Assembly: GCF_008065095.1 (NCBI RefSeq)
Contig: NZ_CP042911.1
Coordinates: 1,650,001 to 1,682,000 of the forward strand
From: Gemmata obscuriglobus
GTDB taxonomy: Bacteria; Planctomycetota; Planctomycetia; Gemmatales; Gemmataceae
DNA: 32,000 nt
Reading direction: 5' to 3'
The notes under the pieces were generated by a model. The model searched no databases, was not told the origin of the DNA, and saw only the letters and a program-made list of their open reading frames with translations. The translations under genes and the position numbers were made by a program. Positions 1 to 29,272 of this stretch are shown here, one piece after another. Position 1 is the stretch's first letter. Each line of letters opens with the position of its first letter.

Positions 1-3000
1 GCGTGGCATGATACGAGAACCTGCGAGAGCGCCGGTGACGTCGTCATAGGAGAAGTCATAGCCTAAGGTATCGTTCCCAGCGCTGAACCCGAAGCGCTCC
101 CTGCCTTTCGACAGCCAATTCGTCAGGTCAAAGTCCGGACACAGCGCCTTCAACTGCTGGTAGACGAAGTATTCGCCGACGGCCCCGAGGACTGCGAGGT
201 AGTCCTCTGACACGCGCGTCCGGGCGCCTCCTCCACTGCCCGCGCCGGGTCGGCCCCGCTTCGTGGGACGTTGCACTGCGCCGCGGGACACCGAGCGGAT
301 GGCTGCGAGATTGAGAGCGGGGTTGACTGCCGCTTCCAGGTTCTGTGCGACCGTCCCGGCCGGCCCCTTGGCGGCGGAGGTTTCGAAGTCCTCGCGCGTC
401 CAGCCGGCGCTGAGGACGTTGAAGGTGGGTTTCGGCGGTGCCGGGGCGGGCGGTGCCGGGATGTCTCCCAGCTCCTCAAATTTCTTCCAGAGTGATCGCC
501 AGTCCTCGACTTCCCGGAATGCAGACCGCTCCTTCATTCGTGCGGCCGTGCGCGGGGCCGCGGCCTCGAGGGCGTCCCGAACGGCGGCGATGACGGCCAC
601 GCGGTTCCCCCAGAAGCCCTGGCTCAGCAGCGTCACCAGTGCGTGCCCCGTGATTGCCGCGGGGTCGATCGTTTCTTCGAACTTCGGCGCGAGCTCGCCC
701 GCCACCTTGAGGACGATGTTCACCGCGTCTCCCGCCTGCTGCGCTCGAACGATCTCGTCGTCCCGCTCGTAGATGCCCGCTGACTTGTCCGGTTCATCCT
801 TCAGCTTGAGAGCGGAGAGTTCCGACGGTGGCGACTCGGAGAGCTTGCGCAGCGGATCGACGAGCTGCGCGGCACCCGCGACGGTGGGGCGGGGCGCGGC
901 GAGCGCGAGGGCATCACGGGCGACGCGGCCGACAATCGCTTCGGGGTTGAGGGTCTCCTCGGCGACCTCCGTAGGCACCGCGAGCCGACGAACGTCTCCC
1001 ACCCAGCCCGCCACGTCGTCCGCGAGTGCTGCGGGCACTGTCGGGCCGGAAGATCGCGGGACGACGAGGTAGGCGAACCAGGCCATCAAGTGACCCGCGA
1101 CGGCATCGCGGGCGGATGTGTAGTGGCGCTCGGAGGGGGCGAAGCGCCACCGCGGCTCGCCGAGCTTCGTGCGAGCGCTCTGCCAGACCGCGACCGAGAG
1201 CCCCAGACCCTTCAGGAGCGACAGCGATCCTTGCGGTTCGTCCACGCGTGATGCCGTTTCCAGGCGCACGTGCAAGTCGGGCCAAGCGAGCCACGCGCTG
1301 GCGGTCTCGGGCGAGCGGGCATGCTGGGACCACTCCCGCCGGAAGTCGTCGAGCGTTCCGTCCGGGTGATCGCGGTCCCAGAGCGCGAGGCAGATCGGTT
1401 GGAAGTGCCGCAGACGGCGCTCGAAGCCCAGGCCGATGGCGACTTTCACCTCCATGCGCTCGGTCGCAGTGGTCCCATAGTCCTGGAAGAATTGGTCACA
1501 GGCACCCGCGCGGAGTTCCTGTGCGTAGGCGGTCCAGAGAGGGCGATACGACGTTCCGAGCAACTGCCAAGTCTCGCTGACGACCTCGTGCGGTGCCAGC
1601 GTGGAATCCACGAGGAGGGCGGGGCCGCCGGCACGCTGCGCATCGAAGCAGGCGCGTTCGGACATCGTGCCCTCGAACCTGCCGCGGATGAGGCTCGTCC
1701 GCGAGAACAGACGCCAGGCGGCGCGGAACGCCTCGTCGGTCGGTAAGGTCGCCTGGGTCGCGCCCTTGAGAATCAGCAGCGCGAGATCCTCCGCCACCAG
1801 CCGCTCCGGAACGGTATCTCGCAGGTAGTCGACGAGGGGAACGCCATGCGCGAGCGGGTTGAAGGGCACGTCGATCGGAAGCTCGCTGACACGGGCCACC
1901 CGCGTTGACCCCAAGAGCGTGCGCAGGGCGTTCACGAGTTCGCGATACGTGTGCTGGAAGCGCCTCGGGAGAACCCACGCCTCCCGGAAACCCGCGACGT
2001 GGCGGCGCCGGATCGAGTCGTCGTCGATCAGCACCCGATCCGTCTCGTTGAGCTTCGCGGAGGTGAGTTCGTCACCCCGGAGGAGCGGCACCGGTGCGCC
2101 GAGCAACGCCTTCACCGCACCGGCCTGCTCGGTGCCCTTGAGCCGTCTGTCGATCGCTTCGTACAGGTCGGAGGCGAGCGCCTCGATGTGCCGCCGCTCG
2201 TCGCTGCCGGCCTTCGGGATGTGCTCCGCGACCTCATGCAGTGCCATGGCCAGCCGCGCGATCGAGGCCTCTTCAAGTGAGACAATCCCGAGCGCCCGCA
2301 GCAGCCCTCGCGCGTCGCCGAACTCGGGCTTCACGCACGTCAGAAACGCGAAACGCTCCGCCTTCGCGTCCCGCGACTCGAGCGGGAGAAACCATGCGCG
2401 CTGCGGGGAGCGGAGGCCGGAACCCGTCGGGATGGTGTCCCACTTCTCGGCGCAGAGCGCGTGTACCCAGAGCGCTGGGACGTCCGAGCTGTCCTCACCG
2501 CTGTGACGCGACAACTTCGCGCCGGCGCTGCTCGCGTAGAGACCCGGCTTCCGGAGCATCGCCTCGACGACCAGCGGCCGAACGGCGTCGTCCTCGAGCC
2601 CGTCGATCCACGCAACCTCATTGAGGTAGAAGGTCTGGCCCGTTTTCGTCTGTGACATTCGCTGGCAGACCGTGCGGAGGTACTGCTTCCACAGCGCATC
2701 GGGGCACGACAGCGGGCGGTCCAACCATAGGTACGGGGTGAGGTAGTTGTAGCTCTTCGCCTCTGCGATGAGCATGGGCTTCGTGGTCCTGCGGATGCGC
2801 GGGCAGTCGGCAACGCCGATGTCCTTCATGCGGTCGAGCCACCACCTTCGATCCGCATCCTTGAAACGCTGGCCGACGCGCTTCTCGAAGCGATCCCACG
2901 GGATGAGCAACGTGTTCGAACGGCTGCCGTAGGCGCGGGCGAGCAGGGCGATGTTCGGGTCGTGCGACCACCCCTTGCCGAAGTAGGCGTTCGTCGGCTC

Positions 3001-5340
3001 CGTCCACGCCCAAGCGTCCCCGGTACCGCTGACCGGAACGAGGAGGCTGTCCGTCGTGACGCGCTGTCGCAACTTCTGCGACATCGTGGCCAGCCAGATG
3101 AGCGCTTGACGCAGCAGAGCCAGCATCCGGTCGTGATCGCCCCGCGCTTCGTGTAGAGCGGGAATCAGGGCGTCGTTGATCAGGATGTCCTGCCGCGGCT
3201 GGCGGACGAGTCCACGGCCGCTGTCCGGGGCCAGCCGCTGAGCGAGTGGGGTGTAGTCTCGTGTCGCCCCGACCCGTATCGTGACCGCGGAGTCGTCGAA
3301 GAATCTGAGCATGGCGGCCACGCCGTCTTCGATTGTCGCAAGCTCGTCGCCAGCGTCTTCGACCGCCTGCGTCTTCTCGGTCGCTCCGGCGGCGCGCGCC
3401 GGACGCACTGGAGGAAAGAACACACGCGCCTTCGCGCTCGACAGGTCTGTCTTGCCGGTGGGAAGGATGACTTGCTCCGCGAGCGCGTCCTGCTGTGTGC
3501 CGAAGCGGTCGAGGACGAAGGTGAAGAACGGTTCCCAGAACGCCGGGCCGTCTTGACGATGCACGCTCGCAGCGTGCTCGAGCAATGAGCGGTGCTCGAC
3601 GCTCTTCTTGAGGTAGGAGCTGTCCGGCACCTCGCTCTGAGGGTTCAGGACGTCGAGCACCTTGCGCGCGTGCTCGAGAAGGATCGGATCGGGTAGCCGA
3701 AAGCCGAACGACTCCACGTTCTTGATTCCGGTGGTCAGTTGCCGGAAGAGTGCGAGGTCTGCCGCCTTGGGTAAGCGCAAGTCGCTGGCCTTGAGGAAGG
3801 CATCCGTGTTGGCGAGTACGACCTCGCCACGTGCGAACCCGTCGGGGGCGTAGAACGCGTCCGCCAGGGCGCCGCGCGTCCGTTCCATCGCCAGTGTCAC
3901 GAGGCGCCGGGTCGTCCGCTCCGGCTCGCGCTTGAACCGTTCCAGCAGCTCGCCCGCCAACTCCACGGCGGCATCGAAGAGCAGATCGTTGTACCGGCTG
4001 TCGAAGTCGATCGCCGTGCGGTCAATCTTCCCGTGAAAGTGCGAGCTCACCCACAGCGGGAGGCCGGTGCTCACTCGCGTCGGGAGCCCGATGCAGAAGA
4101 GGCCCGACGGGCCGAGCGTCGCAGCGGCTTGCTTCTCCGCTAACACGGGTTGGGGGAGCGCCACCGCGACGGGAATTTTCTCGATTCGCTGCCAGTTCTC
4201 TTCCGGAAGCCGCAACGCCTCAATCGCTTCTCGGATCGCGTCCCGCTCGTTGGCTGCGTCTTTGTCGTCACCCTCGCCCAGGAACCGCTCGGCGACCCAC
4301 CAGTCCTGCCCCGGCCCCGGTGGCTCAGCGCTCGCCAGCGAAAGGGCACTACGCAAGCGCGTGGTGCGCAGACGACGGAGCGTAACGCCCGGCGAGAGTT
4401 CTTCCAGTGGGGCAGTCTCCTCCTTCTTCAGCTCCACGCGACAGTCCCGGACGTGGTCCACGATCGTAATCGTGGCGATACCCGGCAGGAACAAAAAGGC
4501 CGTGCCGGTTGGACCACCACCCGCGGCGTGTTTCCCATCCTGCATCTCGTCGATGGCGCTCTCGACATCCGCGTGACGCGTTCCGTCGAGGGGCAGCACG
4601 ACGAGCGTCTGGGTCGTGCGCAGGACGTCCTCGGTGAGGTTGAGTGCCTTGACGCGGTGGTGGAAATGGCCGTCGCTACAGGGAAGCGGGAACGTGAATC
4701 CCGCCGCCCGGCGCGCTTCACGAAGGACCACCTCGGTGGCCGCTGCTGTGGAACCGTTCGGTTCGATCTTGCGAAGGCGCCCCGGCTGCTCCAGGAGCAA
4801 TTCGTCCGCGATGTCGCGCATGTCCGCCAAGAACGTCTCGTCCTCGAACGGCTTGCGCACGATCCGGAAGGCGGTTGGGCAGCCGTCCCACAGGCTCCCG
4901 CCCGGCGCGGCACTGTAGATCTCGGCCGAGTCGGCGACCTGGAAGACGGCCTTGAAACCGATCCCCTTGTTGCCGAGGCACTTATCCGCCTGCTTGTCGC
5001 TCTTGAAGATCGAGGTGATGGCGTCCACCTTCGCTTCGTCGAACGGCTGGCCGCTGTTGCCGATCGCCAGCAGGCGCTCGGTCCAGTGGATCGTGACGGC
5101 CGTGTCCTTCAGGCCCTGCCGAACGGCTTGGTCATTCGCGTTCTGGAGAAGCTCGATCAAAAACCGTCCGTGGTACTCGGCGCTGATGTGCTCCGCGGCG
5201 TTCGCGATCTGGACGTAGTAGGTGTCCTTGTTGGCGATCCCGGAGATGAGGGTGTCGAGTCGACGGTACCAGAGGTCGCGCAGCAGGGACGGCGAACCCG
5301 TGGGAACTGCTGCATTCGCGGGAATCGCCGTGGTCGCCAT
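1..5340 (-). CDS. Giant sacsin/MORC-like GHKL ATPase with C-terminal DUF3883 (NO VEIN-C, restriction-endonuclease-like) domain; 3' end runs off the window (1,780 codons visible)
   Basis: Absent from the ORF track because no stop codon lies inside the window. Hand translation of the minus strand from ATG 5340-5338 gives MATTAIPANAAVPTGSPSLLRDLWYRRLDTLISGIANKDTYYVQIANAAEHISAEYHGRFLIELLQNANDQAVRQGLKDTAVTIHWTERLLAIGNSGQPFDEAKVDAITSIFKSDKQADKCLGNKGIGFKAVFQVADSAE. This contains a GHKL N-box (ELLQNANDQ), a G1-like motif (IGNSGQPF) and a G2 motif (GNKGIGFKAVF). Codons at the left edge read ...AVLGAVGEYFVYQQLKALCPDFDLTNWLSKGRERFGFSAGNDTLGYDFSYDDV, matching the GE..V / W / GYD core of DUF3883. None of the listed minus-strand ORFs in 1-5340 is in this frame (first codon base = 0 mod 3), consistent with one uninterrupted frame. 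Confidence 0.8.
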   Translation of the reverse strand, partial: MATTAIPANAAVPTGSPSLLRDLWYRRLDTLISGIANKDTYYVQIANAAEHISAEYHGRFLIELLQNANDQAVRQGLKDTAVTIHWTERLLAIGNSGQPFDEAKVDAITSIFKSDKQADKCLGNKGIGFKAVFQVADSAEIYSAAPGGSLWDGCPTAFRIVRKPFEDETFLADMRDIADELLLEQPGRLRKIEPNGSTAAATEVVLREARRAAGFTFPLPCSDGHFHHRVKALNLTEDVLRTTQTLVVLPLDGTRHADVESAIDEMQDGKHAAGGGPTGTAFLFLPGIATITIVDHVRDCRVELKKEETAPLEELSPGVTLRRLRTTRLRSALSLASAEPPGPGQDWWVAERFLGEGDDKDAANERDAIREAIEALRLPEENWQRIEKIPVAVALPQPVLAEKQAAATLGPSGLFCIGLPTRVSTGLPLWVSSHFHGKIDRTAIDFDSRYNDLLFDAAVELAGELLERFKREPERTTRRLVTLAMERTRGALADAFYAPDGFARGEVVLANTDAFLKASDLRLPKAADLALFRQLTTGIKNVESFGFRLPDPILLEHARKVLDVLNPQSEVPDSSYLKKSVEHRSLLEHAASVHRQDGPAFWEPFFTFVLDRFGTQQDALAEQVILPTGKTDLSSAKARVFFPPVRPARAAGATEKTQAVEDAGDELATIEDGVAAMLRFFDDSAVTIRVGATRDYTPLAQRLAPDSGRGLVRQPRQDILINDALIPALHEARGDHDRMLALLRQALIWLATMSQKLRQRVTTDSLLVPVSGTGDAWAWTEPTNAYFGKGWSHDPNIALLARAYGSRSNTLLIPWDRFEKRVGQRFKDADRRWWLDRMKDIGVADCPRIRRTTKPMLIAEAKSYNYLTPYLWLDRPLSCPDALWKQYLRTVCQRMSQTKTGQTFYLNEVAWIDGLEDDAVRPLVVEAMLRKPGLYASSAGAKLSRHSGEDSSDVPALWVHALCAEKWDTIPTGSGLRSPQRAWFLPLESRDAKAERFAFLTCVKPEFGDARGLLRALGIVSLEEASIARLAMALHEVAEHIPKAGSDERRHIEALASDLYEAIDRRLKGTEQAGAVKALLGAPVPLLRGDELTSAKLNETDRVLIDDDSIRRRHVAGFREAWVLPRRFQHTYRELVNALRTLLGSTRVARVSELPIDVPFNPLAHGVPLVDYLRDTVPERLVAEDLALLILKGATQATLPTDEAFRAAWRLFSRTSLIRGRFEGTMSERACFDAQRAGGPALLVDSTLAPHEVVSETWQLLGTSYRPLWTAYAQELRAGACDQFFQDYGTTATERMEVKVAIGLGFERRLRHFQPICLALWDRDHPDGTLDDFRREWSQHARSPETASAWLAWPDLHVRLETASRVDEPQGSLSLLKGLGLSVAVWQSARTKLGEPRWRFAPSERHYTSARDAVAGHLMAWFAYLVVPRSSGPTVPAALADDVAGWVGDVRRLAVPTEVAEETLNPEAIVGRVARDALALAAPRPTVAGAAQLVDPLRKLSESPPSELSALKLKDEPDKSAGIYERDDEIVRAQQAGDAVNIVLKVAGELAPKFEETIDPAAITGHALVTLLSQGFWGNRVAVIAAVRDALEAAAPRTAARMKERSAFREVEDWRSLWKKFEELGDIPAPPAPAPPKPTFNVLSAGWTREDFETSAAKGPAGTVAQNLEAAVNPALNLAAIRSVSRGAVQRPTKRGRPGAGSGGGARTRVSEDYLAVLGAVGEYFVYQQLKALCPDFDLTNWLSKGRERFGFSAGNDTLGYDFSYDDVTGALAGSRIMPR

Positions 5341-5812
5341 GGGCTCTGGTCTCGTCGGGGACAGCGGATCGGGCAACGGGTGGGTCAGGCCCGGCACTCC
5401 GCCACATAGTGAATGGTCGTTCCCAAATCCTACTGCAAATGTGACGCGCGGGGTGGCCTTCACCGAAGACTTTGGGAACCGACTACACGAATCGGACCAA
5501 ACCAGAGGGAGCACCGCCGAACCCGAAGAAGCAGACGTTGCGCGCTGCGGTCCGACACACCGAAGTGGCTTCACTACTTGTTCAGGTGTTCCGGCCGTAA
5601 CGTGCTATGACGCTCTTCCCCTAAATTGCTGGGAGTATTGGTGTCGATGGCACCACAAGAACGGGCGATGTCGTCACCAGGCGAGCGACATCTCGCCCGG
5701 TCAGTTGTCCGAACTCGACTCAGTCATCCCTCTAGCTAAATTCTTGGTTTCCCCGGTGAAATTCGGTCCCTATGCACGCATAGGGAAGAAGTGTGAAGGC
5801 CCAAACAAGGAA

Positions 5813-5841
5813 GCGAAGGGGCATCCTGGATGCCCCTTCGC
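5813..5841 (-). terminator. GC-rich hairpin downstream of the 5924-6616 gene (candidate intrinsic terminator)
   Basis: gcgaaggggcatcc (5813-5826) is the exact reverse complement of ggatgccccttcgc (5828-5841). It lies about 80 nt past the minus-strand stop at 5924. On the minus strand the following sequence is cttccttgttt, only moderately T-rich. Confidence 0.35.
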
Positions 5842-5923
5842 GGCACTGCAAGCAGGCACAAATAGACCCCGCAGGGGCACAGGGCGGGGAGCGAACGAAG
5901 GAAGCGAGCGTGGCGGCGCGGTC

Positions 5924-6616
5924 TCAGCCCGGACCGCCGGGGCGCTTGGCGGACGCGGTCAGGCGCGCGACCACCTCCTGCCAGGGCGTGTCGCCGGCCG
6001 GCGCCGGCCGCTCCGTTGCGGCCGCCCGCCACACCGCGATGCGGGCCTTGGGGACGGCCACCTTCACCTCGGCGAGTCCGCCGTCGCGCCACCCGCGGAT
6101 GAGGGCGTCGATCTGCTCCCGCGGTTCGGCGCTCGAGTCCGGGTCGAGCAGCACCCGGTCCCAGCTCACCCCGCGTGTGCCGGCGAGCACCTGGGCCTGG
6201 AGCGCGGCCGCGGACTGGACGTAGTCGAGCAGGGACCCGGCCCACCCGTCCCGCTTCGCTTCCCGGTACAGCTTGCTGGTTCGCACGAACCGCGATACAT
6301 AGGCTTCCGCCTGCGCATCCGCCTCGCGCCGCCGGCCGGCGTCGGGGTCGGGGATGCTCGGGGCGAGGGCGAGCGCCGCTTGGCGTAACCGGCCCGGGCT
6401 CGGCCAGAACCCGGTCGTGTTGGTGTCCCGCACCCTCCCGAAGGCCCGCTCCAGGGTGGTACGGTCGAACTGCTGGAGGGTCTCGATGTATTCGCGGGCG
6501 ATCAGCTCCCAGGCGCGCTCGCGGTCGATGTCGGGATCGGTAAACGGGCGCTCGCCGGGCGAGCCGATGGCGGGCAGCCGGGCCAGGATCACGTCGCGCA
6601 CATCGCGGGCGGTCAT
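5924..6616 (-). CDS. Hypothetical protein (230 aa)
   Basis: Track ORF 5924..6706. I place the start at the internal ATG 6616-6614 (MTARDVRDVILARLPAIGSPGERPF...). Protein-like composition and co-oriented with the parDE block. No family recognised. Confidence 0.55.
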   Translation of the reverse strand: MTARDVRDVILARLPAIGSPGERPFTDPDIDRERAWELIAREYIETLQQFDRTTLERAFGRVRDTNTTGFWPSPGRLRQAALALAPSIPDPDAGRRREADAQAEAYVSRFVRTSKLYREAKRDGWAGSLLDYVQSAAALQAQVLAGTRGVSWDRVLLDPDSSAEPREQIDALIRGWRDGGLAEVKVAVPKARIAVWRAAATERPAPAGDTPWQEVVARLTASAKRPGGPG

Positions 6617-6924: not shown

Positions 6925-7251
6925 TCAGTGCGGGTCGGAGTGAAACAGATCTTCGATGTCGCGAGCGGTGTCGAGGACGCGGATGAGTTGAACGCCGTCG
7001 ACGGTCGGACGGTAGAGCATCACCAGGCGCGTAAACCCGGTGATGTGCCAGCGGCGGACGCCGGCCTCGGTGCCGACCGGCAGGTCGAGCACCGCACCCA
7101 TGCGCGGGTGTTCGCAGAGAGCCCGGAGCGCGGCCTCGGTGCCCTCGACGAAGCGCAGCGCTGTCGCAAGCCCCGCCTCGGCCCAGTAATACTCGGCCAG
7201 TTCGATCAGATCGGTCCGCGCCTGCGGGGTGCGGGTGACCCGATCAGTCAC
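6925..7251 (-). CDS. parE: ParE/RelE-family type II toxin
   Basis: The C-terminal part of track ORF 6925..7422 reads VTDRVTRTPQARTDLIELAEYYWAEAGLATALRFVEGTEAALRALCEHPRMGAVLDLPVGTEAGVRRWHITGFTRLVMLYRPTVDGVQLIRVLDTARDIEDLF, a ParE-like pattern. The GTG at 7251-7249 overlaps the parD stop (cGTGACTGA), the classic TA overlap. Confidence 0.85.
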   Translation of the reverse strand: MTDRVTRTPQARTDLIELAEYYWAEAGLATALRFVEGTEAALRALCEHPRMGAVLDLPVGTEAGVRRWHITGFTRLVMLYRPTVDGVQLIRVLDTARDIEDLFHSDPH

Positions 7252-7516
7252 GCGCCGAACCGTCGCCGCGCGCCTGGAGGTCGTCTCGCAGGTCCGACCA
7301 GAACGACGCCTCGAACGGCTCGGCGGGGCCGCTGTCGAGCCCCCGGCGGATCTCGCCGCGCAGCCACTCCAAGCAGGCCTCGCGCGCCTGCTCTCGCTCC
7401 TCGAGCAGGCGCAGGGCGGCACGCACCACTTCGCTCGCCGACTGGAACCGGCCGTCGCGCACCGTTTGCTGGACGAACGCCTCGAGGTGTGGGGGCAGGG
7501 ACACGTTTAAAGACAT
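7244..7516 (-). CDS. parD: ParD-family (RHH) type II antitoxin
   Basis: MSLNVSLPPHLEAFVQQTVRDGRFQSASEVVRAALRLLEEREQAREACLEWLRGEI... from ATG 7516-7514. This matches the ParD/CC2985-type antidote pattern (SLP..l..fv...v..GrY.saSEvvR.aLRLLee). It sits directly upstream of and overlaps parE. Confidence 0.85.
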   Translation of the reverse strand: MSLNVSLPPHLEAFVQQTVRDGRFQSASEVVRAALRLLEEREQAREACLEWLRGEIRRGLDSGPAEPFEASFWSDLRDDLQARGDGSARD

Positions 7517-7544
7517 GGGCCGACCGTAGCGCAAATCGCCCACA

Positions 7545-7561
7545 ATGTCAAACATTGACAT
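7545..7561. promoter_or_regulatory. 7-3-7 perfect inverted repeat, candidate ParD operator overlapping a TTGACA box
   Basis: atgtcaa-aca-ttgacat at 7545-7561, 29-45 nt upstream of the parD ATG. On the minus strand TTGACA (7552-7547) is followed 18 nt later by TACGGT (7528-7523). Confidence 0.4.
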
Positions 7562-8857: not shown

Positions 8858-10039
8858 TCAGTCGCTCTTCCTCGGCCGTATGGATAGCGCTTGCCGGGTG
8901 CGTTCGATGGTCGCCCGCAATTCGTCTTCCGGCGGCAGGACCGTGAGGTATTCGGACGCGAACACCTGGGCGTTGATGCCACCCATCGCGTACCGCACGA
9001 CCGTGTCACTCTTCTCGCTGCACAGGATCAGGCCGACGGGCTCGTTCTCACCGGGCTCCGTTAAGTGCTCGCGCGCGTAGTTCAGGTACATGTTCATCTG
9101 CCCCGCGTCGGCGTGGCTGAATGCACCGATTTTTAAGTCAATGACGACAAGGCACCGGAGCCGCCGGTGGAACAGGAGCAGGTCGATTTTGTACCACTGC
9201 GCGTCGATGCGGATCTTCCGCTGGCGCGCGACGAAGGTGAACCCGCGGCCGAGCTCGACGAGGAACCCTTCGAGGTTGCGGATGATCGCTTCTTCGAGTT
9301 CGCTTTCCCCGTACTCGTCCGCCAGATTCAAAAACTCTAACAGGTACGGATCGCGCACCAGGAGCGACGGGTCGATCGCATCTGGTGCCTGCGGGACGTG
9401 GGCCTTGGCGAGCAATTCGCTTTTGTGTTTCGATCCCGCCAGACGCTCATAGAACTGGGTCGAGATCTGGCGGTCGAGTTGGCGCACCGACCACCCGCCC
9501 TTGATCGCTTCTTCTTCGTAGAACTGCCGGGCCGCGGTGCCGGCAACGGTCATCAGCCGGACGTAATGGGACCACGGCAGCGGAAAGGTTTCGGTCGTGA
9601 CCAGTGCTCCCGTCGGCGCCGGTCGGTGTCCGAATTCTCCGCCCGTATCGTGGGTCGCACGGATTTGGAAAAGTCCAGACGGCGTCTGGACTATGTGCCA
9701 GCCGAGGTAAAAGCCGCGGATTTGGAACAGGTTGGACCGCGAGAACCCACGCCCGAATTGCTGGGTCAGGTCCGCCGAAAGCCGCGTGATGATTTCCTCC
9801 CCGTACCCGGCCCGCTCCTTTCCGCCTTGCTCGAACTCAACGATGCGGCGGCCCAGTTCGTAATAGGTCGCGGTCATCACCCCGTTGACCGCCCGGGCCG
9901 TTGCGGCACGAGCGTGAGCGAGAAGTGCGGACAGTTCAGAGAGCAGCCCGTGATACGGTGCGCCCGCGCTGCCGGGCAGAAGCCCCGTCTTCGGCTTCGC
10001 CGGCGTGCGAGATTTGGGGGCAGGTTTCTTTTTGGCCAT
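8858..10039 (-). CDS. YhcG-family PDDEXK nuclease (DUF1016)
   Basis: Starts at ATG 10039-10037 (MAKKKPAPKSRTPAKPK...). N-terminal YYELGRRIVEFEQGGKERAGYGEEIITRLSADLTQQFGRGFSRSNLFQIRGFY. C-terminal IDLLLFHRRLRCLVVIDLKIGAFSHADAGQMNMYLNY, the D..(D/E)LK PDDEXK core typical of DUF1016. Confidence 0.85.
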   Translation of the reverse strand: MAKKKPAPKSRTPAKPKTGLLPGSAGAPYHGLLSELSALLAHARAATARAVNGVMTATYYELGRRIVEFEQGGKERAGYGEEIITRLSADLTQQFGRGFSRSNLFQIRGFYLGWHIVQTPSGLFQIRATHDTGGEFGHRPAPTGALVTTETFPLPWSHYVRLMTVAGTAARQFYEEEAIKGGWSVRQLDRQISTQFYERLAGSKHKSELLAKAHVPQAPDAIDPSLLVRDPYLLEFLNLADEYGESELEEAIIRNLEGFLVELGRGFTFVARQRKIRIDAQWYKIDLLLFHRRLRCLVVIDLKIGAFSHADAGQMNMYLNYAREHLTEPGENEPVGLILCSEKSDTVVRYAMGGINAQVFASEYLTVLPPEDELRATIERTRQALSIRPRKSD

Positions 10040-10370
10040 ACGTGGTTTTCCAAGGGAATCGTCCCGCACGCTATCAGTGCCCGTCAGCAAGGGCAAGTCC
10101 TGACTGTGAACCCTGTATTGGTCCCGGCCACTTGACAAACTGTGGCATGTATTACGGTAACGAGCGCCGGCCATCGCGCTCGCGGCCGTTCGCGACTCGC
10201 TACTACCAGGTCATGACGCGGAGTCAGTGGATGCCGGCGCGGGTCGGAATGGTGATTGAGACACGGCATGCATCGCGCGCGGACGACCGTAAAACGCACC
10301 GGGAAACCGGGCCGGGAAACACTTGGCACGGCTCGTGCATCGGGAGCACGCAACCGCCGTACAATCCCGC

Positions 10371-13019
10371 ATGCTCCGCATCGTCCAGCAGTCCCACGCC
10401 AACGCCGCCAAGGGCTACTACGCCCAGTCCGACTATTACGTCGACGGGGCCGAGTTGCCCGGCGCCTGGGGCGGGCGCGGGGCCGCCCTGCTCGGCTTAT
10501 CGGGTGAGGTGCAGCGCGAGGATTTCCACGCCCTGTGCGACAACCACGACCCGCGGTCCGGGCGGCAGCTGACGGCGCGCACCAAGTCCGAGCGGACGGT
10601 GCTCTACGACTGGAGTTTCGACGTCCCCAAGGCGGTCAGCCTCTTGTATGAGCTAGGCGGTGACGAGCGGATCCTGGACGTGTTCCGGGGAGCCGTGCAG
10701 GACACCATGAACGAGATCGAACCGGAGACCCAAACCCGGGTGCGCAAAGGTGGCGCGGCCGAGGACCGGACCACCGGCAACATGGCCTGGGCGATGTTCG
10801 TACACCGCACCTCGCGCCCGAGCAAAGAGGATCTGAAACCGGACCCGCAGTTGCACGCCCACGTGACCGTGTTCAACGCCACCTGGGATCGGGACGAGGG
10901 CCGGTGGAAGGCGACCCAGCACCGGGACCTGAAGCGCGACGCGCCGTACTGGCAGGAGGCGTTCCACGCGCGGCTGGCGGCGGGGCTCGGGGACCTCGGC
11001 TACGGGATCGAGCGGCGCGGTAAGGACTGGTCGATCGCCGGGATCTCGCCGACCCTCGAAAAGAAGTTCTCGCGCCGTCGGACCGAGATCGACGCGCTGG
11101 CCGAGAAGCTGGGGATGACCGATCCGGCGCAACGGGCCACGCTCGGGGCGACCTCACGACTCAACAAGGTCGACGACGGGATCGAATCGTTGCGCAGCTA
11201 CTGGCGCGGGCGGCTCGACGGCAAAGAGCAGGCGGAACTGGACGGGGTCCGCAAAGCCGCCGAGGGGGGCCTGGCCCCGAGCCGCGCTGTGTCTGTGGAA
11301 GACGCCGTGCGGTATTCGATGGCGCACCACTTCGAGCGGGACGCGGTGGTGCCGGAGAAGCGGCTCCTGGCCGAGGCGCTGCGGTACGGCATCGGGGTGG
11401 TGCGCCCCGAGGGTCTACGGGCGGAGGCCGAGCGCCAGGGGGCGCTGACGACGACCCTCGACGGGCAGCGGGTAACGACCAGCCGGGCGGTACTGGCCGA
11501 GGAGCAGAAGCTGCTCTCCTTCGCCCGCGACGGGCGCGGCACCTGCGTGCCGATCGCCGCCAACCACAGGCTGCGACGGGATTGGCTGAGCGCGGAGCAG
11601 CAAGGGGCAGTGCGGCACGTGCTCGGCTCGTCCGACCGGGTGGTGCTCGCGCGCGGGGTGGCCGGCGCCGGTAAGACCACACTCATCCAGGAGGCGGTCG
11701 AGGAGATCCGCGCCGCCGGACTGCCGGTAGCGGTCCTGGCCCCGACGGCGCTGGCCGCCCGGGACGTGCTGCGCGAGCACTTTGCCGAATCCGACACGGT
11801 GGCCGCGTTCCTGACCGATGAAAAGGCCCAGGCCCGGATGCGCGGGGGCGTAATCTGGGTCGACGAGGCCGGGCTCCTGGGGGTGCACGATCTGGCGCAG
11901 GTGTTTGAGGTGGCGCGGGAGCAGGACGCGCGGGTGGTGCTGATGGGCGACACGCGGCAGCACCGGAGCGTGGCCCGGGGGCCGGCCCTGTCGCTCCTCG
12001 AGTCGCACGCCGGGCTCCCGGTCGCGGAGGTCAAGGACATCCGTCGGCAGAAGGCGGCGTACAAACAGGCGGTCGAACACCTGGCCGCGGGGCGCACGGA
12101 AGACGGATTCGCCGCCCTGGATGTGCTCGGGTGGGTGCGGGAGGCCGGGGAGGATCGCAACGCGACGATCGCAACCGACTATATGGTCGCGACCGGCGGC
12201 GGACAGACGGCCCTGGTGGTCGCGCCCACGCACAAAGAAGGAGAGGCAGTGACGGCGGCCATTCGCGAGCGACGGAAGGCGGCGGGGCAACTCGGCGAAG
12301 AGCGAGCCTTCAATCGGTTGGTGCCGCTCAACCTGACGGAAGCGGAGCGGGCCGACCGGCACGCGTACCGCGGCGGCGAAGTGCTCCAGTTCGTCCGGGG
12401 CGCAAAAGGGCATGTGGCCGGCTCACGGCTCGCGGTCACAGAGCCCGAAGCCGTACCGGTGTCGCTCGCGGGACGGTTCCAGGCGTATCGCCGGGCGGAG
12501 CTGAAGGTGGCCGTCGGAGACGTGATCCGGCTCACCGCCGGGGGCAAGGCGTCCGACGGGTCGCGGCTGTCCAACGGGACCACGTTCACGGTGACCGGTT
12601 TCACGGCCACGGGTGATCTGCAACTCGACACGGGCAAGATCCTGCCGGCCGGGTTCGGGCATCTGGCACACGGGTACGCGAGCACCAGCCACGCGTCCCA
12701 GGGGCGGACCGTGGACCGAGTGCTGATCGCACAGCCGGCCGACACGTTTGTGGCTTCGACCCGAGAGCAGTTCTACGTCTCGGTCAGTCGGGCGCGGAGG
12801 TTGGCCACGATCTACACGGACGACAAGAATGCCCTGCGGGAGGCGGTGCAGCGGGCCGAGTGCCGGGTGTCGGCAACCGATCTGATAGCCTTCCGCGGGC
12901 CGAAACAGCTCAACCGACGAGTGACATTCTTGCAGCGGCTTGCTAGTCTGGCACGCGCGCGACAGTTCGAGGCCGAGCTGGCTCATGCGCGCGACGAGCG
13001 CACCGGACGTGGCGGCTGA
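10371..13019 (+). CDS. MobF-family (TrwC/TraA-like) conjugative relaxase fused to a RecD-like helicase
   Basis: ATG 10371 gives MLRIVQQSHANAAKGYYAQSDYYVDGAE (relaxase motif I with two Tyr pairs). HRTSRPSKEDLKPDPQLHAHVTVFNAT is the His-triad motif III. Helicase Walker A is GVAGAGKTT, Walker B is VIWVDEAGLL, followed by VLMGDTRQH and YASTSHASQGRTVDRVLI. Confidence 0.9.
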   Translation: MLRIVQQSHANAAKGYYAQSDYYVDGAELPGAWGGRGAALLGLSGEVQREDFHALCDNHDPRSGRQLTARTKSERTVLYDWSFDVPKAVSLLYELGGDERILDVFRGAVQDTMNEIEPETQTRVRKGGAAEDRTTGNMAWAMFVHRTSRPSKEDLKPDPQLHAHVTVFNATWDRDEGRWKATQHRDLKRDAPYWQEAFHARLAAGLGDLGYGIERRGKDWSIAGISPTLEKKFSRRRTEIDALAEKLGMTDPAQRATLGATSRLNKVDDGIESLRSYWRGRLDGKEQAELDGVRKAAEGGLAPSRAVSVEDAVRYSMAHHFERDAVVPEKRLLAEALRYGIGVVRPEGLRAEAERQGALTTTLDGQRVTTSRAVLAEEQKLLSFARDGRGTCVPIAANHRLRRDWLSAEQQGAVRHVLGSSDRVVLARGVAGAGKTTLIQEAVEEIRAAGLPVAVLAPTALAARDVLREHFAESDTVAAFLTDEKAQARMRGGVIWVDEAGLLGVHDLAQVFEVAREQDARVVLMGDTRQHRSVARGPALSLLESHAGLPVAEVKDIRRQKAAYKQAVEHLAAGRTEDGFAALDVLGWVREAGEDRNATIATDYMVATGGGQTALVVAPTHKEGEAVTAAIRERRKAAGQLGEERAFNRLVPLNLTEAERADRHAYRGGEVLQFVRGAKGHVAGSRLAVTEPEAVPVSLAGRFQAYRRAELKVAVGDVIRLTAGGKASDGSRLSNGTTFTVTGFTATGDLQLDTGKILPAGFGHLAHGYASTSHASQGRTVDRVLIAQPADTFVASTREQFYVSVSRARRLATIYTDDKNALREAVQRAECRVSATDLIAFRGPKQLNRRVTFLQRLASLARARQFEAELAHARDERTGRGG

Positions 13020-14334: not shown

Positions 14335-14962
14335 CGGACCGCGTCGCGCTCCGTGGCGATGAGCGGGCTGACCGGGACCGGGCAGATGGGCAACCCGAAC
14401 AGGTCGTCGAACAGGCGGCTCACCGCCCGCTTGCCCAGGCGGCACGACCCGGTGAGCATGGCGGCCACCGCTTGGGCACGGGGACCGTACCCGGTGACCG
14501 CGTCCGCGGTCACCGGGGCAACGGTGGTAACCCCGCACCGGGGGCACCGGAGCCGATGGCACCGGTACTCGACCACGTGCGGCTTGACGACCGGGGTCTC
14601 GTGCACCTGGTGCACGCGCGGTGTCGGGTCGTCCCCGACCAGCGGGTGTGCGCACCCGCGGCACACGTCCGGCTTGAGGGCCCGCACCTGATCGGGCGGC
14701 AGCAGGTGCGCTCGGCCTTGGGGTGCCCCGGTTGCCCGCCCCGACGCTTCTCCGACGGCCCATTGGGCGGGGCCGGCTTCACCGGCGGGCCATCGGACGA
14801 CGGGGGCTTCGACGAGTTGGTCGAGTTCTGGTTCAACCGGGCCTGGAGATCGGCGACCGTGGCTCGCAACTCCGTCACCGCCGCTTCCAGCGCGCGAATG
14901 TACGCCACCACCGACGGTGGCAGATCGGGTGGCAGGTCCGGCGGTTGAGGAACAGGTGCCAT
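14335..14962 (-). pseudogene. IS66-family transposase, N-terminal fragment with a frameshift, truncated before the DDE domain
   Basis: From ATG 14962: MAPVPQPPDLPPDLPPSVVAYIRALEAAVTELRATVADLQARLNQNSTNSSKPPSSDGPPVKPAPPNGPSEKRRGGQPGHPKAER, the leucine-zipper/NSxNSSKPPSSD/GGQPGH signature. The continuation (LLPPDQVRALKPDVCRGCAHPL..VHQVHETPVVKPHVVEYRCHRLRCPRCG, the zf-IS66 region) is in another frame, switching near 14700-14712. No DDE region follows. Confidence 0.75.
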
Positions 14963-15064
14963 CGCGTCCGTTCGATTACGGAACACCAGCTCGTGAGGCA
15001 ACCCCGCGCCGACGCGAGTAAAAAGACCTGGAAAATGCACAGCTCGCATCCCGTGAATGCTTAC
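14335..15064 (-). mobile_element. IS66-family element remnant (left end and 5' part only)
   Basis: The outer terminus on the minus strand reads GTAAGCattcacggg (15064 downward), matching the conserved 5'-GTAAGC(G) start of IS66-family IRs as I recall it. It contains only the N-terminal third of the transposase and is cut off at the MITE. Confidence 0.65.
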
Positions 15065-15327
15065 AATTCGCGGAAAGTCGTCATGACGCGTTGCGGCTCA
15101 CAGAGACCATGAAAATGGGGGGCAGGCGATCGGTTACACTGATAGGTGGTCCGCCCCGGAGCGAGGCCGCACGGTACTGGTGCTGCAAGCCCGACAGAAA
15201 GTCTGGCCGGACGGTCCCACGACCACGAGACTGTTGCCCCCGGCGCCCGCGGGGAGCACGCCGAGCAGAATGTTCTGACCCCATCGCCGTCCCCGGGGCG
15301 GGCCGCTCTCCTTGAGGAGGATCGGCC
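15065..15327 (+). ncRNA. Candidate bridge RNA (bRNA/seekRNA) region in the IS110 left non-coding end
   Basis: Call by position only: IS110-group elements encode their guide RNA in the 5' non-coding end. By hand I see a 12-bp long-range helix with one bulged A (15118-15130 with 15283-15294). The 7-mer TCCCACG (15215-15221) is complementary to CGTGGGA (16669-16675) at the right junction. Confidence 0.3.
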
Positions 15328-16584
15328 GTGGACACCGTGTACCCGCACTGCGCCGGGTTGGACGTGCACAAGGATACCGTGGTCGCGTGCGTCCGGCACC
15401 ACGATGGCGGCAAGCGGGCTCGCCAGGAAGTGCGCACCTTCGCCACCCACACCCGGGCCCTGGAGGAGCTGGCCACATGGCTGGCGGCCGAGGGCGTCAC
15501 CCATGCGGCCATGGAATCGACCGGGGTGTACTGGAAGCCGGTGTTCAACGTCCTCGACGGCCGGTTCACGCTCCTGCTGGTGAACGCCCAGCACATCAAG
15601 CAGGTACCCGGGCGCAAGGCCGACGTGGCCGACTGCGCCTGGATCGCCCAGCTGCTCCAGCACGGGCTGCTGACCGCCAGCTTCATCCCACCGACCCGCC
15701 AGCGCGAGTTGCGGGATCGGACCCGGCACCGGTCCCAACTGGGGGCCGAGCAGACCGCAGCGGCGAACCGGGTCCAGAAGGTACTGGAGGACGCCAACAT
15801 CAAGCTGGGGAGCGTGGCCAGCGACGTGCTCGGGGTGTCCGGCCGGGCCATGCTCGACGCCATCATCGCCGGGCAGGACGACCCCGCGGTACTGGCCGAC
15901 TTGGCCCGGCGCCGGATGCGGGGGAAGATCCCGTAGCTCCGGGAGGCGCTCCGCGGGCGGGTGACCGAACACCACCGGTTCCTACTCAAGGTGCTCCTGG
16001 AGCACATCGATCAGCTGGATCGGCTGGTGGCCCAACTGGATGCCCGGATCGCCCAGCTCACGGCTCCGGACGTCGAGGCGCTGAACCTGCTGACCACGAT
16101 CCCTGGAATCCAGAAGCACACGGCCGAGGTGCTGCTGGCCGAGATCGGGCCGACCGTCGACCCGTTCCCGACGGCCGGGCGATGCGCAAGCTGGGCCGGG
16201 ATGTGCCCCGGCAACAACGAGAGCGCCGGGAAGCGGCGGACGGGACGCACTCGGCGCGGGAACCGGTAGCTCCGACAGGCCCTGGTGCAAGCCGGGTGGG
16301 CCGCGTCCCACTCGAAGAAGACGTACCTGGGCGCCCGGTACCGGCGGATGGCCCGGCGGCGCGGCGCCAAGCGGGCCCTGCTGGCGATCGGGCATACCCT
16401 ACTGGTGATCGTGTATCAGGTGCTCCGCCATCGGGTGGCATACCAGGAACTCGGAGCCGACTTCTACGACCGGCTCCAACCCGAACGGTTGGCCCGCAAC
16501 CTGGTGCACCGTCTGGAGCAACTCGGACACAAGGTGACCTTGGAGCCAAGCCCGACGCCCGAGCCGGCAGCACTACCGGAGTAA
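15328..16584 (+). pseudogene. IS110-family transposase (DEDD N-domain plus C-terminal Ser domain) interrupted by two in-frame TAG codons
   Basis: Three track ORFs (15328..15936, 15961..16269, 16285..16584) are all in the same frame (1 mod 3). Read through, they give one typical IS110 transposase: GTG start after GAGGAGGA, then VDTVYPHCAGLDVHKDT, MESTGVYW, KADVADCAWIA ... KIP*LREALRGRVTEHHRFLL ... SWAGMCPGNNESAGKRRTGRTRRGNR*LRQALVQAGWAASH. The TAGs are at 15934-15936 and 16267-16269. Confidence 0.85.
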
Positions 16585-16682: not shown

Positions 16683-17342
16683 TCACTGCCGCCAACACTG
16701 GCCGCAGTTCCCACAGTTGACCCCGAACCGCTGACCGGCTGGGGCCTCGTTCGGGCACACCAGCGGCAGCGAGAACGTGGGCCGCGCGTCCCGCAGCGGG
16801 TCGTCGCGGAACACCAGGTTCCCGGCCACCGGTTCGTCGACCGCGGTCTGCAACCAGGCCACCCGCGCCCCTTCCGGGAGCGACTCGGGCATGCCCGTCT
16901 CCGCGTCCGCCGAATACCAGGCGCGGACGTTGCCGAACCCGGCCACCTGCGCCAGTACCGGCGTCATCGCCTCCACCCGCCACGAGCGGGTGTAGAAGTA
17001 AAACGTGGCGACCGGGCACCGGTGGAACACCGACGCCCACTTCGCGGCGTAAGCCGCGTCATAGAAGTCGCCGGACACGTGCACCCGCACCACCAGCGCC
17101 CCTTTGGAACGCACCTCGGCGACCATGCGATCGGCGAAGTCCGCCCGGCGGGACTGCCGGAGGCACCACCGCAGCCGGCGGCGCACCTTGTCGGTGCGGA
17201 ACCGCCCGCGGGTGGCGTAACACACCGACTCGCACACCTGCGACCGGCCCGGGCAGGTGCCGACCGCGGGCAGGTCGAAGTGGTGAATCGCCCGGCCCAG
17301 CTTGGCGTTGCCCAGCGCCAGTAGCGAACGTAACGTAGCCAT
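16683..17342 (-). CDS. Cys-rich phage GP88-like protein (family assignment tentative)
   Basis: Track ORF. ATG 17342 follows GAGGAcagag. MATLRSLLALGNAKLGRAIHHFDLPAVGTCPGRSQVCESVCYATRGRF..., ending CPNEAPAGQRFGVNCGNCGQCWRQ. The NxKLG...LPA..tCPG.S..C...CYA opening matches my memory of the GP88 domain family. Confidence 0.6.
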   Translation of the reverse strand: MATLRSLLALGNAKLGRAIHHFDLPAVGTCPGRSQVCESVCYATRGRFRTDKVRRRLRWCLRQSRRADFADRMVAEVRSKGALVVRVHVSGDFYDAAYAAKWASVFHRCPVATFYFYTRSWRVEAMTPVLAQVAGFGNVRAWYSADAETGMPESLPEGARVAWLQTAVDEPVAGNLVFRDDPLRDARPTFSLPLVCPNEAPAGQRFGVNCGNCGQCWRQ

Positions 17343-18255: not shown

Positions 18256-18483
18256 CTAATCGCCGGGCTCGGCAGCCCGAAGTGACTTCTCGACTTCCAG
18301 AATGACCTCGGCGGGGGACAGGCCGACGGCGCGCACGAGCCGGATGAACACCTCGATGGTCGGGGTGCGCTGGTCTCGCTCGAGGAGGCTCACGTACTCC
18401 CGCGTCAGTTCGGCTTTGACGGCCAGCAGTTCCTGGGTCATCTCGGCCTTGAGCCGCGCCTCTTTTAGCAGTTTTCCGAACAC
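18256..18483 (-). CDS. XRE-family helix-turn-helix transcriptional regulator (75 aa)
   Basis: GTG start at 18483. FGKLLKEARLKAEMTQELLAVKAELTREYVSLLERDQRTPTIEVFIRLVRAVGLSPAEVI is a canonical HTH_XRE/Cro-C1 pattern. Confidence 0.8.
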   Translation of the reverse strand: MFGKLLKEARLKAEMTQELLAVKAELTREYVSLLERDQRTPTIEVFIRLVRAVGLSPAEVILEVEKSLRAAEPGD

Positions 18484-19119: not shown

Positions 19120-19392
19120 ATGAAGTTCGAATCCGCACTCCCTCCACACCTGGAACAGTTCGTCAGGGACCAACTCGCGACCGGTCGCTTTCGGTCCGAG
19201 GGCGAGGTGGTTCACACCGCCCTGCATTTGCTGGAAGGGCAGGCCCATTCGCGCGAGGCCGACAGCGCCTGGCTCAAGCAGGAGTTGGACAAGGGGCTGA
19301 GCAGTCGGCCGGGCGAGCCCATCACCCGGCAGTTCTGGGACCAACTCCGTGCCCGGGTGCGCACGCGTGCGGGACGAGGTGATGGCGCCTGA
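19120..19392 (+). CDS. parD: ParD-family (RHH) antitoxin, second copy
   Basis: ATG 19120. MKFESALPPHLEQFVRDQLATGRFRSEGEVVHTALHLLEGQAHSREADSAWLKQELDKGL is collinear with the ParD at 7244-7516. Confidence 0.85.
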   Translation: MKFESALPPHLEQFVRDQLATGRFRSEGEVVHTALHLLEGQAHSREADSAWLKQELDKGLSSRPGEPITRQFWDQLRARVRTRAGRGDGA

Positions 19393-19714
19393 GCGGACCA
19401 TTCACAAGAGCGAGGTGGCGACCGCCGACCTCACCGAACTGGCGGATCACTTTCTCGAACGCGCCGGCCCCGCCGTCGCGCTGCGGTTCCTCGATGCGGC
19501 CGAGCACGCGTTCGAGCAACTCGTCGCGATGCCGCGGATTGGCGCCGTGCTCGGGCTCGACGAACTCCCGTACGAGGACATCCGGCGCTGGCAGATCGAC
19601 GGCTTCGGCCGCCTGATGATTCTGTACCGGGAAGTGGCGGACGGCGTTGAAGTGATCCGCGTCTTGCACGCTGCCCGCGACATTCCCGCGGTACTGCGGA
19701 CTGTACCGGCGTAA
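19382..19714 (+). CDS. parE: ParE/RelE-family toxin, second copy
   Basis: ATG 19382 overlaps the parD stop (19390-19392) by 11 nt. MAPERTIHKSEVATADLTELADHFLERAGPAVALRFLDAAEHAFEQLVAMPRIGAVLGLDELPYEDIRRWQIDGFGRLMILYREVADGVEVIRVLHAARD. Confidence 0.85.
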   Translation: MAPERTIHKSEVATADLTELADHFLERAGPAVALRFLDAAEHAFEQLVAMPRIGAVLGLDELPYEDIRRWQIDGFGRLMILYREVADGVEVIRVLHAARDIPAVLRTVPA

Positions 19715-20939: not shown

Positions 20940-21197
20940 ATGCAAATCGAACACGTCATCCTCGGAAAGGGTGGCCGACTGGTGATCCCGATCACAATGC
21001 GTAACGAGATCGGAATCCAGGCCGGCGACATTCTCGTGCTGGAGTCGGACGGTGACAGCCTTCTGGTTCGCACCCGCGATCGGGTACTGCGCGAGGTGCA
21101 GGCGTCCTTTGCCGACATCGTACCAGCGGATGTGCTGCTATCCGATGAGCTGATTGCCGAACGACGTGCCGACGCCGAGCGTGACTGTCGGAACTGA
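20940..21197 (+). CDS. vapB: AbrB/SpoVT-fold antitoxin (VapB/MazE-like)
   Basis: ATG 20940 follows GGAGGctgcc. MQIEHVILGKGGRLVIPITMRNEIGIQAGDILVLESDGDSLLVRTRD is a SpoVT-AbrB swapped-hairpin pattern. Overlaps the PIN gene. Confidence 0.8.
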   Translation: MQIEHVILGKGGRLVIPITMRNEIGIQAGDILVLESDGDSLLVRTRDRVLREVQASFADIVPADVLLSDELIAERRADAERDCRN

Positions 21198-24993: not shown

Positions 24994-25075
24994 GCCGATT
25001 CCTCAAGGGGTCAAGAGGAGCAAGGGTAACGCCGGTTAGCATCGCCCATGCGTTTTACTCAATCATCGGCCCGAT

Positions 25076-29218: not shown

Positions 29219-29272
29219 GGGCGCACTCCTGCAGGCTGTCAAAGAGAGATTCGATTCGTTGTCGTAAGCACG

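Follow-up and report, generated by a model that had tools for sequence, protein, structure and literature searches.

A giant TmtA-like gene, probably encoding a Tiamat-family defense enzyme, within a mobile element of Gemmata obscuriglobus

A 32,000-nucleotide stretch of the Gemmata obscuriglobus genome, referred to here as the window, was analyzed (NCBI RefSeq assembly GCF_008065095.1, contig NZ_CP042911.1, positions 1,650,001 to 1,682,000 of the forward strand). Its left end is occupied by most of a giant minus-strand gene. The product belongs, by current profile models, to the Tiamat (TmtA) family and is probably a defense enzyme that works as a single polypeptide. The gene, its parts, and the region upstream of it are listed below by window position, with amino acids abbreviated as aa. 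AF2 denotes the AlphaFold2 structure prediction.

1..5340, minus strand: TmtA-like (Tiamat-family) gene, codons 1-1780 of 1,863, assigned from the open frame, the full-length product P0001, and the PADLOC models PDLC03966 and PDLC03971; the remaining 83 codons and the stop are beyond the left window edge
4915..5166, minus strand: predicted sacsin-type GHKL (Bergerat-fold) ATP-binding core, aa 59-142, from NF047352, invariant columns, and PDB sacsin entries 5v44-5v47 by profile
3421..5295, minus strand: predicted Hsp90-like N-terminal plus middle module, aa ~16-640, from the AF2 model and Foldseek; it includes the conserved G413-x4-GLP...TG...R441 block
421..3345, minus strand: clade-specific middle region, aa 666-1640, from the AF2 model; no known fold or domain, many invariant W/P/R/G
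1..213, minus strand: predicted N-terminal half of the DUF3883/NOV_C PD-(D/E)XK domain, aa 1710-1780 (G-E1723, W1742, G-Y-D1762), from PF13020, invariant residues, and literature
5341..5923, minus strand: 583-bp intergenic region 5' of the giant gene, from the sequence read and gene calls

The frame starts at an ATG at position 5340 and runs through 1,780 codons to the window edge with zero stops. This had been described in an original prediction made from the letters of the window, and translation of the window confirmed it. At the local guanine-plus-cytosine (GC) content of 66.8%, with a stop probability of 0.0228 per codon, such a stop-free run would arise by chance with a probability of 1.4e-18. 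The GC content at codon positions 1, 2, and 3 is 0.685/0.487/0.831, which is a coding signature, as in a real high-GC gene. Leftward extension through identical contigs, a check that the original prediction had called for, provided the full gene and its neighbors. Homolog search found the full-length product, P0001 (1,863 aa), on ten contigs, of which two exceed 1 Mb. Since P0001 is 100% identical to the window frame, the window lacks only the last 83 aa; it covers the first 96% of the protein, and the complete gene is 5,592 bp. The gene was indeed missing from the list of open reading frames (ORFs) supplied with the window, but this absence carries no significance because frames extending past the window end are not reported by the ORF lister. 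The 583-bp region upstream presumably contains the gene's own promoter.

Conservation was assessed in alignments of 26-28 full-length homologs, with identities down to 29%; domain tallies covered 26 homologs and neighborhoods were compared at 29 loci. The sacsin-type GHKL motifs expected near the N-terminus were confirmed, as the NCBIfam model NF047352, 'sacsin N-terminal ATP-binding-like domain', matched aa 59-142 with E = 6.2e-19 (68 bits, cut-off 50). The Pfam SACS model scored 20.4 bits in P0001, under its cut-off of 32.8, and was present in 25 of the 26 aligned homologs. The invariant GHKL residues are E63/N67/D70 (the N-box), N95-x-G97, K116, and G123-N-K-G-x-G-F-K130. A profile-to-PDB sequence search matched only the Hsp90-like domains of sacsin (5v44-5v47, 4e-4). 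The AF2 model of residues 1-660, based on 40 homologs, had a predicted local distance difference test score (pLDDT) of 84.3 and a predicted template modeling score (pTM) of 0.81. Its best PDB matches by Foldseek were full-length Hsp90, TRAP1, HtpG, and GRP94, with E-values down to 5e-9 over 500-700 aligned columns. This resemblance to the full-length Hsp90 family suggests that the ATPase domain and an Hsp90-style middle domain form one module. The invariant R441 (codon 4018-4020) is located in a loop between the strand at 430-433 and the long helix at 449-470. Hsp90 R380 and, by prediction, sacsin R474 are catalytic-loop arginines in the same sub-structure (PMC9880540), and by analogy R441 would be their equivalent. 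An ATPase of the HATPase_c_3 or MORC type, as originally predicted, did not hold up. HATPase_c_3 (PF13589) gave E = 0.1 on the isolated N-terminus and matched 0/26 homologs at E <= 0.01, and MORC3 was a weaker structural match of the N-terminal model than Hsp90 (Foldseek, E = 1.5e-6). By current models, the ATPase of the giant protein is of the sacsin/Hsp90 type rather than the MORC/HATPase_c_3 type.

At the other end of the protein, the DUF3883 core residues (GE, W, and GYD) that had been noticed in the last ~70 aa visible proved to be real: G1722-E1723, W1742, and G1760-Y-D1762 are present in P0001 and invariant in the family. Pfam support came only with the full-length protein. In the window-truncated 1,780-aa product there was no significant Pfam match of DUF3883, while on P0001 PF13020 (NOV_C = DUF3883) scored 31.5 bits against a cut-off of 22.1 (1.9e-7, aa 1757-1832). 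The threshold was passed only on the full-length protein because E1784-x-K1786 lies beyond the window edge, with the catalytic E1784-V-K1786 element 4-6 codons past it. PF13020 was also matched in 25/26 homologs. Among the nuclease residues, E1723, D1762, and K1786 show no variation, and conservation of E1784 is at least 90%. DUF3883 has been placed in the PD-(D/E)XK superfamily (PMC3424549), was described by Anantharaman et al. as a novel restriction endonuclease domain (PMC3710099), and in YenY4I it is the domain that carries out endonuclease catalysis (PMC6765204). Judged from its sequence, the segment at aa ~1710-1863 is predicted to be a DUF3883/NOV_C PD-(D/E)XK nuclease in which the E...D...E-x-K catalytic set is intact. 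The suggestion that one polypeptide unites a GHKL NTPase with a PD-(D/E)XK nuclease is supported by NF047352 and PF13020. Profile searches for both domains, as had been advised, detected DUF3883 on the full-length protein and, in place of HATPase_c_3, the sacsin-type domain of NF047352. The NO VEIN-like pairing of a sacsin-type ATPase with NOV_C/DUF3883 was thus upheld without its HATPase_c_3 component.

Between these ends, ~1,500 aa had been described as motif-free. There is no Pfam domain in the middle region of P0001 or of the 26 homologs, and no known fold was recognized, but the region is conserved and confidently folded and is not featureless filler. Structure prediction of residues 666-1780, another of the suggested checks, gave a confident local fold (AF2, pLDDT 87.2), with a mixed alpha/beta first part followed by an all-helical part (~aa 1250-1620). 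The pTM of this model was 0.53, so the relative placement of its domains is uncertain. A fold search with the middle/C-terminal model found no match with E < 0.29 in the PDB or in BFVD (viral predicted structures). When aa 666-1640 were used as the query in an exhaustive phmmer search, matches were found in only 154 clusters among 1.84 billion representative proteins. Every full-length match was 1,800-1,900 aa in length and carried the region at the same position. Sequence conservation is even along the whole giant protein. The rarity, fixed position, and even conservation of the middle region suggest a constrained, clade-private module and not a mere linker. Weak TRAP1 matches by Foldseek (prob <= 0.63, E >= 0.29) hinted at a second, degenerate Hsp90-like module in the middle; this candidate was rejected, as hhalign of the N-terminal against the middle sub-alignments found no internal repeat.

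PADLOC models were run on the giant protein, and the seven TmtA (Tiamat) models were its only strong matches. The best were PDLC03966 (1.2e-85, aa 21-1065) and PDLC03971 (2e-84, aa 19-1404). In the supplement of Millman et al. 2022 (bioRxiv 10.1101/2022.05.11.491447, supplementary files 3 and 11), Tiamat is entered as a one-gene system, TmtA, with the annotation 'Hsp90, DUF3684, DUF3883', and the 1,590-aa TmtA of Bacillus cereus FORC_005 is marked 'v'/'Verified'. The original prediction knew of no experimental work on the bacterial form. This statement is outdated, since the architecture is that of Tiamat and these supplementary files record a verified example. The best sub-model for the first 399 aa of the verified TmtA is PDLC03964 (1.4e-138), which matched the giant protein at 8.7e-52. 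BLASTP against the same 399 aa aligned 129 aa of the GHKL core at 29% identity (E = 1e-10), and a homolog search that used them as the query returned only short or partial proteins.

The giant protein shares with TmtA the profile match, a single large polypeptide that begins with a GHKL ATPase of the Hsp90/sacsin type and ends with DUF3883, the absence of an obligatory partner, and an occurrence as a stand-alone gene in defense islands and mobile elements. Compared to the verified TmtA, the Gemmata protein is ~270 aa longer, and its best sub-models are PDLC03966/PDLC03971 in contrast to PDLC03964. Unlike TmtA as annotated by Millman et al., it has no DUF3684 match, and its middle is limited to the rare ~1,850-aa clade. 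As the family is currently modeled, the giant protein is a Tiamat member of another clade than the tested example. The sequences and models describe this long-form clade as rare, ~1,850 aa in length, and with a middle region of no known fold. One survey groups Tiamat with single-gene PD-(D/E)XK systems (bioRxiv 10.1101/2024.10.26.620412), and Tiamat is concentrated in genomic-island hotspots of Pseudomonas (PMC12629846). No mechanistic study of TmtA/Tiamat was found in the literature searched.

The best match among 185,579 species representatives had 55% identity. Relatives are scattered over Gamma-, Beta-, and Alphaproteobacteria, Planctomycetota, Acidobacteriota, Myxococcota, Gemmatimonadota, Chloroflexota, and Verrucomicrobiota. 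In the plasmid and phage collections there was no close relative, just GHKL-core matches to 'DUF3883 domain-containing proteins' and one unannotated phage contig; of these distant GHKL-DUF3883 relatives on plasmids, 7/20 were conjugative. The neighbors of the homologs vary. P0034 (51% identity; L091 299-13607) has the orientation of a Wadjet JetABCD operon and starts 24 bp after its JetD gene. P0099 is found near a BamHI-type restriction-modification system, a resolvase, and an HNH gene, P0004 near AddAB-like nucleases, a transposase, and MAD7/NERD-kinase (MADS-like) genes, and P0029 near DUF4007/BrxC-like genes, while P0072 is a lone insertion amid metabolic genes. Clustering of the flanking ORFs at the 29 loci found no family in more than 5/29, so there is no universal partner gene. 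A conserved core-genome housekeeping context, which had been set as a sign against the defense reading, was not found at any of these loci. The varied neighbors, the patchy spread over phyla, and the absence of a partner form the pattern of a stand-alone defense gene that moves horizontally.

Two features of these neighborhoods were also observed. The adjacency of Wadjet, an anti-plasmid system, and the TmtA-like P0034 is unusually tight. Also, AddA/AddB-like genes (UvrD-helicase plus PDDEXK_1) adjoin a TmtA-like gene at three otherwise unrelated loci (L019 2546-5692, L022 11866-15042, and L087 3106-9493).

At three other loci the TmtA-like gene accompanies DUF1156 methyltransferase and DUF499-like ATPase genes. 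In the canonical restriction-modification-like DUF1156/DUF499 operon the helicase is fused to DUF3883 (PMC3710099). At L007 (3444-15559), the TmtA-like gene (55% identity) follows the co-oriented DUF1156 methyltransferase and DUF499-like ATPase genes with no helicase between. At L008 (11-15616), the DUF1156/DUF499-like genes are again co-oriented, the helicase does not end in DUF3883, and the start of the TmtA-like gene is 39 bp further on. The 1,027-aa product of the first gene of the L008 array had no PDB sequence match, and BLAST ties it to DUF499-like ATPases. At L050 (7197-22704), a complete DUF1156/DUF499/helicase-DUF3883 operon abuts the TmtA-like gene in convergent orientation.

The gene in the window has element genes on both sides. 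To its left (3'), the identical contigs contain a ParA-like ATPase, a small ORF, RepA (PF10134), ThyX, and then a methyltransferase operon. To its right (5'), the window contains a 230-aa hypothetical protein, ParD/ParE, a DUF1016/YhcG nuclease, and a TrwC relaxase. With the relaxase and ParDE on one side and ParA/RepA on the other, the giant gene lies inside a conjugative or mobilizable element; it had been described as next to a mobile island and is instead within it. The boundaries of the element were searched for, and there was no tRNA in the 32,000-nucleotide window or its 10-kb left extension and no direct repeat longer than 17 nucleotides between the two. A search with the identical relaxase for a version of the element free of the gene returned only the same element. 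The other features of the window, with left-flank features at the end, are as follows:

5924-6616, minus strand: 230-aa hypothetical protein (gene call; no Pfam or PADLOC match)
6925-7251, minus strand: ParE toxin (gene call with Pfam)
7244-7555, minus strand: ParD antitoxin (gene call with Pfam)
8858-10090, minus strand: DUF1016/YhcG PD-(D/E)XK protein that adjoins the relaxase (PADLOC candidate defense family PDC-S02, 3.7e-131)
10323-13019, plus strand: TrwC/TraI-type relaxase-helicase (gene call with Pfam)
14510-15049, minus strand: DUF6444 ORF (gene call)
15580-16584, plus strand: IS110-family transposase (gene call with Pfam)
16683-17342, minus strand: GP88-domain protein, 219 aa (PF17338, phage-associated), between the IS110 transposase and the HTH_3 regulator
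18256-18441, minus strand: helix-turn-helix (HTH_3) regulator (gene call with Pfam)
19120-19714, plus strand: second ParD/ParE pair (gene calls with Pfam)
19774-20823, minus strand: tyrosine integrase (gene call with Pfam)
20940-21570, plus strand: MazE/PIN pair (gene calls with Pfam)
within 22732-31797, minus strand: caspase-like Peptidase_C14 protein, 753 aa
within 22732-31797, minus strand: tetratricopeptide repeat (TPR) plus CHAT protein, 1,388 aa
within 22732-31797, minus strand: Ser/Thr protein kinase, 598 aa (generic PADLOC kinase matches)
31207-31797, plus strand: extracytoplasmic function (ECF) sigma factor
within L001 18840-24677, left-flank operon: C5 DNA methyltransferase (PADLOC MTase_II, 6e-105)
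within L001 18840-24677, left-flank operon: 293-aa CARF6-like protein (PADLOC 'CARF6', 7e-35)
within L001 18840-24677, left-flank operon: 573-aa ORC/Cdc6-like ATPase (PF24389)
within L001 18840-24677, left-flank operon: 337-aa HD-CE protein (PF24391)

The left-flank region L001 18840-24677, ~4-10 kb left of window position 1, starts with the ThyX gene, which is followed by an apparent four-gene operon. The methyltransferase/CARF6-like/ORC-Cdc6-like/HD operon looks like a second, possibly uncharacterized defense module on the same element. The cluster at 22732-31797 may be a protease-based signaling or conflict module or else a set of ordinary host genes. Three toxin-antitoxin pairs, two ParD/ParE (6925-7555 and 19120-19714) and one MazE/PIN (20940-21570), are found within one 15-kb stretch. 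The GP88-domain protein hints at content of phage origin in the island. The GC content is ~57% around 21-22 kb of the window and ~67% elsewhere. Short-read assemblies of the same strain end contigs at window positions 14510-16584, and the IS110 transposase is sometimes called as split ORFs.

The defense role put forward in the original prediction is the best supported, given the TmtA matches at ~1e-85 and the defense-island and mobile-element contexts. We consider it likely that the gene is cargo of an integrative conjugative or mobilizable element and encodes a stand-alone, single-polypeptide Tiamat-family defense enzyme in which recognition of an invader is followed by an ATP-driven switch and cutting of DNA. 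In the GHKL machines MutL, MORC, GyrB, and Hsp90, the nucleotide drives closure of the N-terminal domains, and the nuclease proposed here would, by analogy, be gated by ATP. Invader DNA or a phage protein would most naturally be sensed by the large middle region, whose cue could be foreign DNA, a DNA end or structure, or a phage protein that binds in the manner of an Hsp90 client. Recognition would license ATP binding and hydrolysis by the GHKL module, producing an N-terminal clamp or conformational switch, and the switch would activate the C-terminal nuclease. The DNA cut could be that of the invader, which would be direct immunity, or the cell's own, indiscriminately, which would be abortive infection. 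From its place on the element, the gene would guard host and element against phages or rival plasmids.

Several observations weigh against this interpretation. In the GHKL DxGxG motif, the Asp that contacts adenine is replaced by an invariant Asn (N95), as in sacsin, and ATP binding by sacsin has been debated (PMC9880540). The verified TmtA comes from a distant clade, with the low GHKL-core identity given above, and the ~1,000-aa middle has no detectable counterpart in it, as compared through its first 399 aa and phmmer, the PADLOC profile matches aside. DUF3684 (PF12449) was not matched by P0001 (E <= 1) or by any of the 26 homologs (E <= 0.01), although DUF3684 may not be a defining feature of the TmtA family. 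An Enterobacter TmtA of 1,429 aa is marked 'x', no protection when tested, in the supplementary files of Millman et al. (bioRxiv 10.1101/2022.05.11.491447), so membership of the TmtA family is no guarantee of the phenotype. The mechanism of Tiamat is listed as unknown in later review literature (PMC12926258). Finally, a position among partition, replication, and toxin-antitoxin genes would suit a role in element maintenance too.

This last point leads to another explanation, that the protein serves the mobile element itself as a maintenance module, an exclusion, incompatibility, or addiction-type nuclease that kills competing plasmids, integrative conjugative elements (ICEs), or element-free cells. 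The giant gene does sit between ParD/ParE plus the relaxase and the ParA-like gene plus RepA (PF10134), the same element carries two ParDE pairs and the MazE/PIN pair, and distant GHKL-DUF3883 relatives occur on plasmids, including the conjugative ones counted above. However, homologs are found in chromosomal defense islands, and once alone among metabolic genes, with plasmid or ICE genes not nearby, and no conserved tie to partition or replication genes was seen across the 29 loci. We regard such a role as unlikely, and anti-plasmid and anti-phage functions are compatible with each other. The protein could also be a sacsin-like chaperone of the Hsp90 type, or have another housekeeping role, with a C-terminal domain that is degenerate and not catalytic. 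This could explain why the N-terminal 640 aa resemble full-length Hsp90-family chaperones, and sacsin is a chaperone (PMC3710099, PMC9880540). Such a role is extremely improbable given the invariant PD-(D/E)XK catalytic residues, the rarity and patchy spread of the gene (154 clusters), and its location on mobile elements and in defense islands with no conserved core-genome context. The sacsin hallmarks (three repeats, DnaJ, and HEPN) are also absent by hhalign and Pfam, with no DnaJ or HEPN Pfam match in the giant protein or the 26 homologs.

The loci with DUF1156 and DUF499 genes raise the question of whether the protein is the nuclease arm of a methylation-based, restriction-modification-like system (Hma-like), where it would replace the helicase-DUF3883 protein and the window copy would be orphaned or act in trans. 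In the two closest reference relatives, L007 and L008 (55% identity), the gene follows co-oriented DUF1156/DUF499-like genes, and the helicase is missing from one and without its DUF3883 end in the other. Such an arrangement occurs in just 3/29 loci, though, and at L050 the operon has its own helicase-DUF3883 and is convergent, which looks like simple co-location in an island. The window locus has no such neighbors within 10 kb on either side, and Tiamat is recorded as validated as a single gene in the supplementary files cited above. This makes the explanation very unlikely for the gene in the window. A broader proposal, on which we place only slightly more than a small chance, is that the middle is a new invader-sensing module of the rare long-form Tiamat clade and that at L007 and L008 the GHKL-DUF3883 giant has been recruited into the DUF1156/DUF499 operons in the helicase-DUF3883 slot. 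If true, an Hsp90-like clamp would be an alternative motor for a methylation-guided restriction system.

The Tiamat-family protein can also be compared to better-known systems. In sacsin (PDB 5V44-5V47), the variant Bergerat fold of the ATP-binding core is the one seen here: it carries ELLQNAxD and G-x-x-GIGF, and Asn replaces the Asp of DxGxG. The core is likewise followed by an Hsp90-like middle domain that has a conserved Arg in a loop. Sacsin differs in being eukaryotic, with three repeat modules plus ubiquitin-like (Ubl), DnaJ, and HEPN domains and no DUF3883. Plant NO VEIN (NOV) and NOV-like proteins combine a sacsin-type ATPase with a C-terminal NOV_C (PF13020). The likeness is one of architecture and is confined to this domain pairing, middle regions aside; NOV itself is a developmental factor of the eukaryotic nucleus. 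With MutL and MORC the parallel is a functional analogy only, as ATP-dependent N-terminal dimerization of their GHKL module controls a distal DNA-acting domain; they belong to other Pfam families (HATPase_c_3 is not significant here), and the MutL endonuclease does not have the PD-(D/E)XK fold. YenY4I/McaZI (DUF3427-DUF3883) and the helicase-DUF3883 proteins of DUF1156/DUF499 operons carry the same C-terminal PD-(D/E)XK domain, and such restriction-type systems are genomically associated with a TmtA-like gene at L007, L008, and L050. Their N-terminal modules are PUA/DUF3427 or a superfamily 2 (SF2) helicase, in contrast to the Hsp90-like ATPase here.

The architecture is already named and has one experimental validation, and no new category is opened because standard tools such as PADLOC would already call the gene Tiamat; what is new is the rare long-form clade with a middle of no known fold. 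Tiamat is one of the single-gene defense systems validated in 2022, and in bacteria it represents the architecture of sacsin and NO VEIN, two eukaryotic proteins whose biochemistry is poorly understood. The long-form clade is well conserved and confidently modeled, and it offers mutational targets (E63/N67, R441, and D1762/E1784/K1786) in a defined mobile-element context. The giant gene of G. obscuriglobus is of value for comparative and structural studies of how a nuclease may be controlled by an Hsp90-like ATPase.

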